From an uncultured archaeon (GTDB lineage Archaea > Asgardarchaeota > Lokiarchaeia > Sigyniarchaeales > SOKP01), in NCBI GenBank assembly GCA_964632315.1, contig CAZWEM010000020.1, positions 1 to 64,000 on the forward strand: DNA of 64,000 nt, written 5' to 3'. Under the pieces are notes generated by a model. The model was not told the origin of the DNA and made no database searches. It saw nothing but the letters and a program-made list of their open reading frames with translations. Below, piece by piece: positions 59,731-64,000 of this stretch. Within the stretch, counting starts at the first letter, position 1, and every line of letters begins with the position of its first letter. The translations under genes and the position numbers were made by a program.

Positions 59731-60885
59731 ATGATGATACCAAAGGCAAAATATCATGAGCATTATGTAGGACCAAGGGCTATATTTGACCAAGACTTCA
59801 TACCACCAAGTATTTTACACCGACAAAAAGAAGAAAATGCCTTATTTTCAATGATAAAAGATTCCTTGACGGATAACTTTAGCATTAACATACTTTATCA
59901 AGGAATTGAAGGAATCGGGAAAAAAGTAATTATCAATAAAGTAATAAGAGATCTTAACAATTTTCACGATAATGAAGTGAATACGTGGAAGATTAAGGTC
60001 AACTGTCAAGAAAAAAATCTTGAAGAGCTCATAATTTCAATTTTAAGCGAAATAGATAAAATTCATGATTTTAAAATTGATTTTCATCAAATATTAAATT
60101 GTAATCTTTCAGATTTATGGAAACTTTTTAAACTCGCTTGCCAAAAGATTGAATTTAAACCTATTTTCGTGTTCAATAACGTAGAAAATTTAGATCCCAG
60201 AATTTTTAGGAAATTTATTCAATATGGAAAGGAGGCTAAGATAAGCTTAATATCAACCATCAATAAAATTTTAAGGCCTTCTTCCTATGAGTTATACAGT
60301 CAATTTGATTTTAAGGTGAATTTAAACTACTTTTCTTATAATCAATTATATGATATCCTCCAGCAACGGTTTTCCTTATCTTTCTTACAAGATATCGATA
60401 AAGAATTAATTGAATACATTACGGATTTGATTTTCGAGCATTATGTGCCCGTGCCTGGAAAAGGAGTCGAGATTTTAAAAGAATTATATCCTTTTTTGAA
60501 AGAATGCACATCCCAAAATTTTGGACTTTTTGAAATTATTCAGAATCAATTTGACCCCCTTCAGATGTCTGATGAATTTAGCATGCTCTCCTATATATCT
60601 GAAGAAGAATTACTAACTCTCATATTTTTAGATAATCTTTCTAACTTTTTTCTAAAAAAGAGAAACTATTATATCAATATGAGTGAGTTGAAAGAATTGT
60701 ATTTTGTTGCTTGTGAAAACCTTGACTATAAAAAGTCCAACAATGAATTTAATAGTTTAATAAAAACCTATCAAAATATTGGAATCATTAGTAATTCCAG
60801 AAATACAATCGAGCGACGATTCTTTATGACAATCGCTCCAAAACAGTTAAAAACAATAATAGATACAGTTTTTACTAAATTCTGA
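59731..60885 (+). CDS. Divergent Orc1/Cdc6 paralogue with degenerate ATPase motifs
   Basis: FDQDFIPPSILHR, GIEGIGKK, VNC, FVFNNVE, YSYNQL-like, C-terminal winged helix. Confidence 0.8.
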   Translation: MMIPKAKYHEHYVGPRAIFDQDFIPPSILHRQKEENALFSMIKDSLTDNFSINILYQGIEGIGKKVIINKVIRDLNNFHDNEVNTWKIKVNCQEKNLEELIISILSEIDKIHDFKIDFHQILNCNLSDLWKLFKLACQKIEFKPIFVFNNVENLDPRIFRKFIQYGKEAKISLISTINKILRPSSYELYSQFDFKVNLNYFSYNQLYDILQQRFSLSFLQDIDKELIEYITDLIFEHYVPVPGKGVEILKELYPFLKECTSQNFGLFEIIQNQFDPLQMSDEFSMLSYISEEELLTLIFLDNLSNFFLKKRNYYINMSELKELYFVACENLDYKKSNNEFNSLIKTYQNIGIISNSRNTIERRFFMTIAPKQLKTIIDTVFTKF

Positions 60886-60998: not shown

Positions 60999-63900
60999 TT
61001 GACTTATATCAAAAAGGTAAGCATGACGGGCTTTAAGTCGTTTGGGGATAGGACAGTCACCATACGCTTATCATCTGGGTTCACTTGTATAGTAGGGCCT
61101 AACGGGGCGGGTAAATCTAATATAATTGATGCATTATGCTTTGCTCTAGGTCGTTTAAGTAAAAAGACAATGAGAGCAAAAAGTTTGGAGGATTTAATTT
61201 TTGCTGGTTCAAGAGGTAAGAATCCTTCACAGAGAGCTTCAGTTACTTTATTTTTTGATAATAGCGATAAAGAGTTCCCAGGTGAAGGAGAGGATTTTCA
61301 AATAACCCGGGTAGTTAAACGGGGTGGTGGTGGGGGTTACAAGATGAATGGCAAAAAGGTCACCCGTCAGCAGATCCTTAATGCTTTAGCAGCAGCAAAT
61401 ATCGATCCTGATGGAAGCAATCAATTTGTTTTACAGGGAAAAATAGTTGAATTGACACATATGAATCCCGAAGATCGTCGTGTTTTTATTGAGGAACTTA
61501 TTGGGCTCCAGAAATACGATGAAATGAAAGACGTCACAATGAAAGAATTGGAAAAAGCAGAAAGAGATTTGGGTCAGTTTGAAGCCATTTTTAAAGAAGT
61601 GTCTTCTCAACTTAAAAAGGTAGAAAAAGAAAAGAATGATGCCCTTGCTTGGAAAGAATTAGATGAAAAAATCAATTTTTATAATTCACAATTAATTGCA
61701 CTTAAAATTTCCCTATTACGCAAGGAAGAAGCCGATTTAGAAGTTAAGATCGAAAATTCTAATAAAATCATAGAAGAACTCAATGAAAAAGTAACTCGGC
61801 AAGAAGAACTTCTGAAACAAGAATCGCTAGTCATGGATAACATTCAAAAAACAATAACAGAAAAAGAAAAAGAACGAGAAACTATAAATGAGAATATAAC
61901 CCAGTTAAAAACTCAATTATCGTCAAATCAAACCACTCTTAATTTAGCTCAGAAATCCATTGAGAAGTTGCAAAATGAAATAATGGAGTTAGAAAAATTA
62001 CAAATGGAGTTGGAAGAAGGGCAAACCTATGATTCCTTGATTGAAAATGTCTCAACTGAAATAACTGGAATAGAATACAATATTGAAGAAGCTAAGAAAG
62101 AAATTGAATCAAAGCAACAAGTCCAATCAGAATTAGATGCCAAAATCAAGGATAGTGAAGATGAAAAATCATCCTTTAAAGCTGAAATTTCAGGCATAAA
62201 ACAGACTATTTCCTCGAAAAATGCTCAAATCTCCCTTTTAAAGGAAAACATGAAAAAAAATGAAGAGAAAAAGCAAAAATTAGAAGCAGATCTTCAAAAG
62301 CTTAAAGGAGAAGCAGAAAGCATTGATGAGGCGATCAAAGCAACCAAAGAAGAGGAAACAAGTATTAGAACCACCATCGCCGAGCTAAATGCTAACATCT
62401 CCGATGAGAACAAAAAACAGCAAGACTTAGAAAATAAAATCGCAGAAACTCGTGGTGAAAAAGCGCAATTGAATGAAAAAATTGGAAATTTCCAATCATC
62501 ATTATCATCGTTAAATACTGAAATTAAATTAAGCAATGACAGGATTCAAAGTTTAACAGCTCGTAAAACTTCTATCGAAAAGAAGATACAAGATTTGAGT
62601 AAGGGAAAAGATTCAGAAGAAGCATTAAAGGAATTATTAAAGGAAAAAGATCAAATTCTCAAGGAGTTGAATGAGTTAAAGGCGAAAGCTAAGCAAGAAG
62701 ATTCTGCTTTCCGTAAGAACGAGCAAGATCTAGAATTATTATTGATGAAACAAGATTCCATTGAAGCTGAAATTGTTGATAATAAAGCAAAAATCGAAAA
62801 TTTGAATACTCGCTTAAAATTGAATGAAAAAGAACTTAAGTCACTAGATCGGGATAAAAGAGACCTAGAACTTACGGTTTCTTCCGCATCAAGTAACCTT
62901 TCGAAAACTGAAAAGGAACTCGATACATTAAACGCCAAAAAAGAAAACATTACCCGTAGAATTGAAGAACTCAATAAAGAAAAAGATAATCTCCTACAAA
63001 AAATCGAAGCTACTGAACAAGAATATGAACGAAATACCGAGGATGTCACGGGAATCCTTCAAATCCTAAACATGCTCACCCAGAATATCAATATATCCGT
63101 TGAATCAATCAAGAGTAATATTCAACAATCGAATGCAGAAGCAATCGAAACTTCCGCTGATGATTTTAGGAAGTTCGTGTTGGACATAATCGATATCATG
63201 AAAACTGTTGAAGATGTAGAAAAAGAACATGAAGTACAAACAGAACACGAAGAGCAACCAGAACACGGTACTTCATTAAAATCAATCTTACAAACTCTTG
63301 CCTTGTTTACAGAAAACGTCGACTCGACGATTGATCAGTTAATTAGTAAGGTAAAAGAATCTGCCGATGTGGAGATCCAAGAATCAACTTCCACTTTTGA
63401 TACCTTTGTTCAAGATCTCATGGAAATCCTCGAAAACGTGTACCTATCTCTAAGAAAATTGACGATGTCTAAAAGTCAAGAGCTGTATAAACAATTGGAG
63501 GAAATTTCAACAACCATTAATTCTCAAGCGGATGATTTAAATGGAGTTGGGATGCACATCAAGGAAATCAACATTCAAAATTCCCACGATTCAGAAACAC
63601 TCAAGGTTTCGTCTAAAAAATTGGAAGAAATAAAAGGTAGGATTCAAGAATTAGAGACTAATTCTGATGAATACGAGAAAGAAGTCACTACACGGACCGA
63701 ATCAATAAATCAGAAACAAGCAGAAGACTTAACTGAGGAAATAAAGAAATTAAAGGACCTAAAAGAAACTTATTGGGAGAATAATTCGGAGCTGGAAGCA
63801 AAAATTGATGCGAAACAAAAAGAATTCGATGTCATCCAAACCAAGCTTCAAGAATTAAGAGGGATAGAGAATCTGGTCGAGAACATGATGGAAATCGACA

Positions 63901-64000
63901 ATAACGTTCAACAACTAAACAAAACAATCGCTGAAAAGAAAGCAGTCATTGTTGATACTGAAGGACAAATCGCGAAGATTAAAGAAGATCAAGACGCATT
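60999..64000 (+). CDS. smc: Chromosome segregation protein Smc, 3'-truncated by window edge (absent from ORF track)
   Basis: TTG start; TYIKKVSMTGFKSF, IVGPNGAGKSNIIDAL, MRAKSLEDLIFAG, Q-loop VLQGKI, PEDRR..IEE..G, then coiled coil; open for 1000 codons. Confidence 0.93.
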   Translation, partial: MTYIKKVSMTGFKSFGDRTVTIRLSSGFTCIVGPNGAGKSNIIDALCFALGRLSKKTMRAKSLEDLIFAGSRGKNPSQRASVTLFFDNSDKEFPGEGEDFQITRVVKRGGGGGYKMNGKKVTRQQILNALAAANIDPDGSNQFVLQGKIVELTHMNPEDRRVFIEELIGLQKYDEMKDVTMKELEKAERDLGQFEAIFKEVSSQLKKVEKEKNDALAWKELDEKINFYNSQLIALKISLLRKEEADLEVKIENSNKIIEELNEKVTRQEELLKQESLVMDNIQKTITEKEKERETINENITQLKTQLSSNQTTLNLAQKSIEKLQNEIMELEKLQMELEEGQTYDSLIENVSTEITGIEYNIEEAKKEIESKQQVQSELDAKIKDSEDEKSSFKAEISGIKQTISSKNAQISLLKENMKKNEEKKQKLEADLQKLKGEAESIDEAIKATKEEETSIRTTIAELNANISDENKKQQDLENKIAETRGEKAQLNEKIGNFQSSLSSLNTEIKLSNDRIQSLTARKTSIEKKIQDLSKGKDSEEALKELLKEKDQILKELNELKAKAKQEDSAFRKNEQDLELLLMKQDSIEAEIVDNKAKIENLNTRLKLNEKELKSLDRDKRDLELTVSSASSNLSKTEKELDTLNAKKENITRRIEELNKEKDNLLQKIEATEQEYERNTEDVTGILQILNMLTQNINISVESIKSNIQQSNAEAIETSADDFRKFVLDIIDIMKTVEDVEKEHEVQTEHEEQPEHGTSLKSILQTLALFTENVDSTIDQLISKVKESADVEIQESTSTFDTFVQDLMEILENVYLSLRKLTMSKSQELYKQLEEISTTINSQADDLNGVGMHIKEINIQNSHDSETLKVSSKKLEEIKGRIQELETNSDEYEKEVTTRTESINQKQAEDLTEEIKKLKDLKETYWENNSELEAKIDAKQKEFDVIQTKLQELRGIENLVENMMEIDNNVQQLNKTIAEKKAVIVDTEGQIAKIKEDQDA

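Follow-up and report, generated by a model that had tools for sequence, protein, structure and literature searches.

An Asgard archaeal Smc with a duplicated helical module at the place of the hinge

The hinge is a textbook defining feature of SMC proteins, from bacterial and archaeal Smc to eukaryotic SMC1-6, and it is debated whether it binds DNA, lets DNA enter or serves as a gate for bypassing obstacles. A reading frame at the end of the stretch of DNA analysed here (64,000 nucleotides from an uncultured Asgard archaeon; hereafter the window) raises the question of what an Smc protein can be without one. The initial annotation had read from this frame a condensin-type head, no hinge and no zinc hook, and had proposed a duplicated, all-helical apex in their place.

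The smcL gene, its ATPase head and its clade

The gene, smcL, starts with a TTG codon at position 60999 of the plus strand, to which all coordinates below refer, and passes the end of the window, so that its first 1000 codons (60999-64000) are contained; the N-terminus, MTYIKK..., is as in homologues. On the full contig the frame stops at position 65462, giving a protein (SmcL) of 1487 aa, and the size of ~1500 aa estimated from the window was therefore right. The first half of the split ATPase head (aa 1-175; 60999-61523) carries the Walker A motif GPNGAGKS and the Q-loop, with a column identity of ~0.95, and SmcL matched the Pfam family SMC_N at 129.8 bits. Beyond the window, a canonical-type arm is followed by the C-terminal head with the LSGGEK signature, Walker B, D-loop and H-loop at aa 1379-1440; every motif of the condensin-type head that had been claimed is thus readable in the translation.

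The closest known system is canonical prokaryotic Smc-ScpAB, as represented by Pyrococcus or B. subtilis Smc, the models TIGR02168 and TIGR02169, PF02463 together with PF06470, and the PDB entries 5xei, 4i99 and 3zgx. SmcL exceeded the cut-off of TIGR02168 (607.6 bits; cut-off 567.35) and stayed under that of the archaeal-type TIGR02169 (633.6 bits; cut-off 729.4). Its head matched the Pyrococcus Smc head 5xei with E = 2.5e-119, as against E = 3.5e-12 for SMC5 and 2e-7 or worse for the Rad50 heads in the PDB, and the NCBIfam model of Rad50 scored 125.8 bits for a cut-off of 1087. In a head tree of 32 Asgard sequences, SmcL formed a single clade (100/100) nested within the canonical Smc clade, which as a whole was split from the SMC5/6-like SMCs, again at 100/100, and the SmcL head branches were shorter than those of the canonical Smc that coexists with it in some genera. 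At the sequence level, we show that SmcL arose as a paralogue of canonical archaeal Smc.

These data rule out three other identities. Rad50/SbcC shares with SmcL the SMC-superfamily ATPase and a coiled coil capped by a small non-hinge apex, but is set apart by the CxxC hook and hook-family match that SmcL lacks, by weak head similarity, and by Mre11 rather than ScpAB as partner. An SMC5/6-like identity is ruled out by the separate head clades, and a pseudogene by the intact frame and motifs in more than 100 homologues. Two reports describe an SMC5/6-related SMC as a second paralogue in Asgard and TACK archaea with small partner genes of its own (PMC8665677; bioRxiv 10.1101/2024.01.07.573240). 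The one in the source genome (contig C44, 1136 aa), which belongs to the separate clade, still has a hinge, if a weak one, and is of normal length, whereas SmcL is a further, canonical-type duplicate. The bioRxiv report, in its consulted part, also presents an extra whole-complex duplication in Asgard archaea and does not describe hinge loss.

The place of the hinge and the architecture of the tip

A Pfam search of SmcL, even at E <= 1, returned only SMC_N and AAA-type head families, without the hinge family PF06470. The Rad50 zinc hook family gave no Pfam match either, and no CxxC occurs anywhere in the 1487 aa, whose only three cysteines are at positions 30, 47 and 1230. The absence of hinge and hook noted within the window thus held for the full-length protein: from position 64000 onward the gene encodes coiled coil and the C-terminal half of the head, and no canonical hinge. 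Where the hinge went missing is defined by collinearity with canonical Asgard Smc, which extends across aa 1-539 and aa 1015-1473 of SmcL. By BLASTP, aa 1-539 aligned to aa 5-518 of a canonical Asgard Smc, and in the genome G147 residues 2-522 and 676-1193 of the canonical Smc matched the smcL gene, while its hinge residues 523-675 had no counterpart there. Among the hinge matches in 61 genomes of the SmcL-bearing family, none lay within a frame of ~1480 aa. From these alignments it is shown that SmcL retained both its heads and, at full length, the canonical arm, the N-terminal strand of which (aa 176-539; 61524-62615) is collinear with the whole canonical one.

The place of the hinge is taken by ~475 residues, namely ~140-170 extra coiled-coil residues per strand and a module of 165 aa. 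The ascending arm extension (aa 540-680; 62616-63038) is without a canonical counterpart and consists of 45% charged residues with no glycine and no proline, and the descending extension occupies aa 846-1000 in the window (63534-63998) and continues to ~aa 1014. The arm strand leading up to the module thereby measures ~505 aa and the one leading away from it 435-460 aa, compared with ~340 aa per strand in canonical Smc, and the arms are ~1.5 times the usual length.

Between the extensions lie the two repeat copies that had been noticed 77 aa apart; we found them at aa 685 and 762, within 63039-63449. The apex halves aligned by BLASTP with 29% identity over 65 aa (E = 2e-8). When family-alignment profiles of unit 1 (aa 681-738; 63039-63212) and unit 2 (aa 760-817; 63276-63449) were compared by hhalign, they matched with 97.8% probability and E = 1.3e-12 over 58 columns in register, the best E among the controls, in which each unit profile was compared with 25 arm windows (50 in total), being 0.006. 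On this comparison the two units are a true duplication. The linker (aa 739-759; 63213-63275) is indeed an EHE-rich acidic loop, with a net charge of -7; it is the least conserved stretch of SmcL (column identity 0.36), bears indels and varies in length. Unit 2 is followed by a highly conserved helix (aa 818-845; 63450-63533; column identity 0.93) with the motif SLRKLTMSKSQELYKQLEEIS. This helix carries invariant residues and was included in every match of the apex profile, and from the alignments it belongs to the module as found in all relatives.

Across 103 full-length homologues, the column identity was 0.8-0.96 in the apex, ~0.95 in the heads and 0.55-0.8 in the arms, and the units were near-invariant across 49 homologues. 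Since the apex is as conserved as the heads and more so than the arms, it appears to be under selection. The units also resemble the heads in composition (43% hydrophobic and 24% charged residues), as against 31% and 38-45% in the arms. In parts of each unit, the conserved hydrophobic positions follow a 3-1-3-3-1-3 spacing, that is, three per heptad; this alignment-based pattern is more informative than a count of heptad occupancy on the window's own single sequence, which was not clear-cut. Conserved polar stretches (SNAEAIE.SA and ESADV..Q.ST) lie in the middle of the units. Canonical Asgard hinges are basic and rich in glycine and proline (net charge +2 to +10; 15-19 Gly+Pro), whereas the SmcL tip is strongly acidic (net charge -21; 3 Gly+Pro).

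The AlphaFold2 (AF2) model of aa 560-940 (pLDDT 84) is an all-helical hairpin with a non-helical turn at aa 745-754, within a stretch of pLDDT below 50 (aa 741-756), and a second model from a more diverse alignment turns at aa 748-754. In the first model the ascending strand is a continuous helix through aa 560-680 (pLDDT 89-95). In both models helix is predicted past the acidic loop, in agreement with the coiled coil that had been read there; in the first, the descending strand is helical to aa 908 and, after a short break, to aa 939. Both models turn inside the module and nowhere else in the arm, as the initial annotation had supposed. The predicted fold-back of the chain thus falls within the acidic loop, which would cap an arm of ~75 nm, with units 1 and 2 antiparallel at its tip. 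The proposed all-helical replacement of the hinge accordingly finds support in the Pfam searches, the collinearity with canonical Smc, the two models and the conservation in the family. The monomer models are plain two-helix hairpins and not bundles. In the model of aa 560-940 the pLDDT falls to 60-80 precisely in the most conserved apex stretch, which, like the composition and hydrophobic spacing of the units, hints at an interface. A Foldseek search of the PDB with the apex model found generic coiled-coil hairpins alone, none at E <= 0.001, and an ESM Atlas feature search with aa 672-850 gave best scores of 0.88 and pointed to no family. A complex prediction with two copies of aa 640-860, run without controls, scored 0.00 and speaks neither for nor against binding.

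Partner genes, distribution and relatives of the module

A downstream kleisin, for which the initial annotation had suggested looking, was present in relatives: smcL is followed directly by ScpA-like and ScpB genes in four genomes (G147, G165, G089 and G193) and has them nearby in a fifth (G030). In the source assembly the pair is not adjacent, as the smcL contig (C20) ends 650 bp past the gene and scpA and scpB lie on another contig (C47:4624-6524); they are orthologues of the relatives' pair (52-57% identity). We found no overlap between the end of C20 and the start of C47 that would join the two into one locus. The gene neighbourhoods and orthology show that SmcL has its own kleisin and kite genes. 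The kleisin bears DNA-binding-like N-terminal appendages that vary between lineages (SAP/HeH-like, zinc-finger-like or H1-like tails).

In the genomes compared, the SmcL proteins are restricted to a single Asgard order, with smcL present in 38 of 40 genomes of the SmcL-bearing family. The source genome, when searched for SMCs, yielded SmcL and the SMC5/6-like SMC with its weak hinge and nothing else, and a canonical Smc above the cut-off was absent from all 13 genomes of the source genus with at least 90% completeness. Because canonical, hinge-bearing Smc-ScpB coexists with SmcL in some genera and was not found in the source genus, SmcL reads as a paralogue that is now the sole condensin-type SMC seen there. 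A search of sequencing runs for the DNA listed salt-marsh and marsh metagenomes and no RNA run.

A search with the apex profile matched 37 cluster representatives among 1.84 billion. Four are full-length SmcL-type proteins of 1464-1487 aa that match SmcL end to end; a variant of 1296 aa matches both strands and is ~95 aa shorter on each, symmetrically around the module. Non-SMC proteins of ~950-1180 aa also have the two-unit module at their N-terminus, and carry a second, weaker unit pair and a Lys-rich, histone-H1-like tail; since it is present there too, the module appears to be an autonomous, transferable interaction domain. This non-SMC family was found in 1 of the 201 genomes searched and not in the source genome. 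A frame of 1176 aa upstream of scpA, tested as a relative of this family, proved unrelated.

A proposed tip-to-tip dimer and its significance

We consider it fairly probable that SmcL serves as SMC subunit in a working, condensin-like complex of the Smc-ScpAB type that dimerises through its tips in one Lokiarchaeia-type order. The likeness to Smc-ScpAB lies in the split ABC ATPase head, the collinear full-length arm, the ScpA kleisin and ScpB kite genes, and the head phylogeny. Dimerisation via the tip is inferred from conservation, composition and analogy. Each unit would offer a wide, conserved hydrophobic face of the a/d/e type, by which two tips would pair and form a constitutive interface resembling a four-helix bundle. 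This interface would do the one job of the hinge, dimerisation, that engineering work has shown to be indispensable. As in Smc-ScpAB, ATP might then drive the heads to engage, along with bridging by the kleisin and DNA loop extrusion or entrapment. Because the tip is strongly acidic, the DNA contacts of a normal hinge have probably been lost or moved, perhaps to the N-terminal appendages of the kleisin.

The precedent for such a design is B. subtilis Smc(Zh), an engineered protein whose hinge was exchanged for the zinc hook of P. furiosus Rad50 (PMC5344682), which shows that a structurally unrelated apex on the coiled coil can work. Smc(Zh) is artificial and bridged by a metal in its CxxC hook, whereas SmcL is natural, with a Cys-free tip, a duplicated helical module and longer arms. 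Natural SMC-clade homologues have been reported as 'hinge-less' in marine Actinobacteria (PMC12153180); as far as the consulted part of that report describes them, these are bacterial proteins for which neither a duplicated apex nor longer arms are mentioned, and the comparison is by description. Our search of the literature on hinge-less archaeal Smc returned this case and general phylogenies of Asgard SMCs, and no paper describing SmcL.

The module might instead be a docking site for some other factor, for example a protein particular to the lineage or an anchor to cytoskeleton or membrane, with SmcLs joined only by ATP-engaged heads and the kleisin or acting as single hairpins. The occurrence of the module on non-SMC proteins, the polar stretches in mid-unit, which resemble a binding surface more than a buried core, and the plain hairpins of the monomer models all fit such a role. 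We nevertheless regard it as unlikely, though worth keeping in mind, since the SMCs that have been tested stop functioning when their hinges no longer dimerise (reviewed in PMC5344682) and a helical pair that is duplicated and pseudo-symmetric and has wide hydrophobic faces looks like a bundle-forming dimer interface; moreover, the rarity of the non-SMC family and its absence from the source genome mean that it is not an obligate partner. That the module is instead an insertion in one arm, with the true fold-back and a cryptic dimerisation element elsewhere, could be argued from the unequal strands and from the restriction of the AF2 model to aa 560-940. This is highly improbable, as both models turn between the units, the module sits halfway between the blocks collinear with canonical Smc, P754 within the acidic loop is the sole proline of the arms, no other non-head stretch is equally conserved, and the 1296-aa member is shortened symmetrically about the module.

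SmcL could also be a decaying or neofunctionalised paralogue, for example in defence or repair, that leaves the chromosome to the SMC5/6-like complex or other proteins. Its coexistence with canonical Smc-ScpB in some genera would suit such a history, as would some other Asgard families in which TIGR02169 gave very weak matches only and which may for that reason live without canonical Smc. The intact homologues, the short head branches, the dedicated ScpA-ScpB operon and the near-universal presence in the family, with no defence-island context seen around smcL, make this quite unlikely as a whole; decay is excluded, and an altered cellular role would still be compatible with the sequences.

Returning to the proposed tip-dimerising complex, SmcL is a true member of the Smc clade that has a kleisin and a kite of its own and has shed the hinge. 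It is under strong purifying selection, and in many genomes of the prokaryotes most closely related to eukaryotes no other condensin-type SMC was found. As the hinge is replaced while the heads and the ScpA and ScpB partners are kept, SmcL offers a natural test of hinge function and parallels, in nature, the engineered zinc-hook Smc. Its lengthened arms and the shorter variant form a natural experiment on arm length, in which the difference of ~95 aa per strand fits the published arm period of 91-99 aa. SmcL further refines the picture of SMC-complex duplication in Asgard archaea from which the origin of cohesin and condensin is reconstructed. More tentatively, and with some doubt, the module may be read as a new, autonomous SMC dimerisation domain that took over completely from the hinge in what became the sole condensin of most Loki-type archaea, with the DNA contacts passed to the kleisin appendages; the H1-tailed non-SMC proteins that carry the module might bind to the SMC tip or imitate it. 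If so, loop-extruding SMC motors would need neither the hinge fold nor a DNA gate at the hinge.

The smcL gene and the replacement of the hinge

The smcL ORF begins with a TTG start at position 60999 on the plus strand and runs past the window edge (C20:1-64000; genome G000, 4.45 Mb in 119 contigs); on the contig the ORF ends at 65462, and the complete protein has 1487 aa, close to the ~1500 aa that the initial annotation had predicted. In Pfam, SMC_N spans aa 3-1461 (129.8 bits) and the remaining matches are AAA-type head families, while neither SMC_hinge nor the Rad50 hook appears even at E ≤ 1. SmcL contains three Cys residues (30, 47, 1230), no CxxC motif and one Pro in its arms (P754), and thus the absence of hinge, zinc hook and CxxC claimed earlier extends to the full 1487 aa. 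The heads are complete, having Walker A GPNGAGKS, a Q-loop, the signature LSGGEK, Walker B and D-loop FFVLDEIDAALD, and an H-loop. Upstream of smcL lies a 384-aa gene (59731-60885, plus strand) with no significant Pfam match, which is probably just a neighbour because it adjoins smcL in G030 only and not in G147, G165 or G089.

By BLASTP, SmcL aa 1-539 and 1015-1473 correspond to aa 5-518 and 755-1186 of canonical Asgard Smc, which is about 1190 aa long. A canonical Smc from a related genome, searched against G000, matched smcL with its own residues 2-522 and 676-1193, and its hinge had no match. By these collinear blocks and the unmatched hinge, the canonical head and the entire canonical arm are kept, with about 475 residues standing where the hinge was, in agreement with the proposed hinge replacement. 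These residues comprise the first strand of an arm extension (aa 540-680, no canonical counterpart), unit 1 (aa 681-738), a loop (aa 739-759), unit 2 (aa 760-817), a conserved helix (aa 818-845) and the second strand of the extension (aa 846-1014). The SmcL arms are about 1.5 times the canonical length. The 165-aa apex has a net charge of -21 and 3 Gly+Pro, whereas four canonical Asgard hinges have net charges of +2 to +10 and 15-19 Gly+Pro.

A duplicated helical module at the apex

The two copies of an amphipathic unit noticed initially, which start at aa 685 and aa 762, align by BLASTP with 29% identity across 65 aa (E = 2e-8). With family alignments, hhalign matched aa 680-745 to aa 757-822 at 97.8% probability (E = 1.3e-12, 58 columns in register), while both unit profiles, each run against 25 arm windows as a control, reached E = 0.006 at best; therefore the duplication is genuine and not coiled-coil background. 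The units (24% charged, 43% hydrophobic residues) resemble the globular heads in composition rather than the arms (38-45% charged, about 31% hydrophobic). Among divergent relatives, conserved hydrophobic positions in parts of each unit are spaced 3-1-3-3-1-3 and therefore number three per heptad, not two, which suggests that the unit helices may keep a hydrophobic face spare after two-helix pairing.

AlphaFold2 predicted a single long helical hairpin for aa 560-940 (49 homologues, pLDDT 84), helical to aa 744, with a non-helical turn at 745-754 and helix again from 755. In this model pLDDT is below 50 over aa 741-756, around the predicted turn, and a drop to 60-80 coincides exactly with the most conserved stretch. 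An apex-only model (aa 672-850) from a more diverse 36-row alignment again gave a hairpin, turning at 748-754. The chain is thus predicted to fold back within the duplicated module, in the loop between the units, as the all-helical apex of the initial annotation implied, and by hairpin topology unit 1 would lie antiparallel to unit 2. Across 103 full-length homologues, column identity is 0.8-0.96 for the units and the helix after them, compared with ~0.95 for the heads, 0.55-0.8 for the arms and 0.36 for the loop.

Distribution, paralogy and partners

A query of aa 640-900 retrieved 169 proteins, nearly all of 1470-1490 aa, with 60-93% apex identity (where labelled, from Lokiarchaeota, Promethearchaeota and other Asgard MAGs), and the module occurs in only 37 of 1.84 billion cluster representatives. 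The apex profile matched 38/40 genomes of the window's family, 3/3 in a sister family that shares its order and 1/10 in one other family outside that order, with no match in 24 further Asgard families. Outside the order SmcL was seen once, on an 8.6-kb contig (G193:C70:1-8628), and this copy is 82% identical to a sister-family SmcL; G193 SmcL, ScpA and ScpB share 67-84% identity with their counterparts in G165, a member of the sister family. The contig is probably mis-binned or a recent transfer.

In a maximum-likelihood tree of concatenated head halves from 32 Asgard SMCs, SmcL is monophyletic (100/100) within the canonical Smc clade, its branch point among canonical Smc proteins not being resolved, and that clade is separated from SMC5/6-like SMCs at 100/100. 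Searches with TIGR02169 and PF06470 found canonical Smc of about 1200 aa in most Asgard families. In the window's family, every genome has an SMC5/6-like SMC (about 1150 aa, weak hinge), a canonical Smc whose hinge scores strongly (90-122 bits) was found in some genera only, and no PF06470 match falls within an ORF of about 1480 aa. No canonical Smc over cut-off was found in G000 or in any of the 13 genomes of its genus that are at least 90% complete. Since canonical Smc-ScpB coexists with SmcL in some genera, SmcL is a paralogue that took the place of the original Smc, not an Smc remodelled in place. Genomes of the Asgard families f5 and f14 (e.g. G003, G026, G054, G074; some closed) match TIGR02169 only at E ~1e-9 to 1e-13 and may have no canonical Smc. 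The second SMC of G000 (C44:23322-26732, minus strand; 1136 aa, weak hinge at aa 502-615) belongs to the SMC5/6-like clade, and two small ORFs after it (215 and 174 aa, no Pfam family) are probably its kleisin and kite.

ScpA-like and ScpB genes directly follow smcL in G147, G165, G089 and G193 and lie nearby in G030. Where a genome encodes both SMCs, it also encodes a long ScpB, next to smcL, and a second, short ScpB, next to canonical smc. The kleisin sought downstream of smcL was not on C20, which ends 650 bp after the gene; the one ScpA-ScpB pair of G000, on C47 (4624-6524), is orthologous to the smcL-linked pair (52-57% identity), and a flanking 865-aa gene is syntenic as well. The ends of C20 and C47 do not overlap. 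Directly upstream of scpA is a 1176-aa ORF (C47:324-3854, no Pfam match), and C47 begins 324 bp before it; given these short distances to the contig ends and the plus strand of both genes, this ORF may lie between smcL and scpAB in a locus split over both contigs. The smcL-linked kleisin bears an N-terminal appendage that differs by lineage (loci L016, L017, L018, L019, L020 and L022): SAP/HeH/Rho_N-like in G000 and G030, a C2H2-like CPYC...HKC motif in G147, and a long Lys/Ser/Thr-rich tail in G165, G089 and G193. The smcL-linked ScpB has an acidic N-terminal extension (in G000, Asp and Glu make up 56% of the first 120 aa) that is missing from the short ScpB.

Proposed action and placement of SmcL

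We infer that two SmcL tips would self-associate via the wide hydrophobic faces of the units, forming a bundle-like, constitutive dimer; ATPase-driven action would thereafter proceed as in Smc-ScpAB, and the acidic tip would not bind DNA. A precedent is an engineered B. subtilis Smc with the Rad50 zinc hook in place of its hinge, which supports normal growth on rich medium and from which the authors concluded that it does not matter which fold the dimerisation domain has (PMC5344682). In the same study, Smc arm lengths that are functional repeat every 91-99 aa. P0143, a full-length family member of 1296 aa, lacks ~95 aa of the N-terminal strand and ~99 of the C-terminal strand, symmetrically about the module, which fits this period and supports the module as the apex; the shortening equals one published coiled-coil superhelical period.

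In the main rival reading, the module would serve as a docking surface and not as a self-association domain, as it is also found N-terminally in non-SMC proteins about 950-1180 aa long (P0142, P0144, P0146, P0148, P0153, P0154, P0157, P0158; SmcL, P0002, shares 25% identity with P0144 over 162 aa, E = 9e-13). These carriers are rare, however, being found in 1/201 genomes (G089:C26; L021:4178-7255, minus strand) and absent from G000. They hold the two-unit module at aa ~70-205 and a weaker second pair at ~330-450, some have a Lys-rich histone-H1-like tail, and the one gene context seen, beside genes for lysine and leucine biosynthesis, is uninformative. The observation behind the initial annotation is confirmed by Pfam, Cys count, BLASTP and hhalign with controls, and the evidence backs its hinge replacement, helical fold-back apex and size; its dimerisation claim lies outside that support.

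Canonical and SMC5/6-related SMCs of archaea have been described (PMC8665677); a preprint reports an additional whole-complex SMC duplication in some Asgard archaea (10.1101/2024.01.07.573240), and hinge-less SMC homologues are reported in marine Actinobacteria (PMC12153180). Our literature search found no description of a hinge-less, long-armed Asgard Smc. Added here are the coexistence of SmcL with canonical Smc-ScpB in some genera, the split locus in the G000 assembly, the occurrence of the module outside SMC proteins, the variant with shorter arms and the controls for duplication. As a hinge-less paralogue of Smc, SmcL is intact and conserved and has a kleisin and a kite of its own; because the hinge that it lacks is a defining feature of Smc, SmcL is best placed as a variant of the Smc-ScpAB kind rather than an ordinary member.
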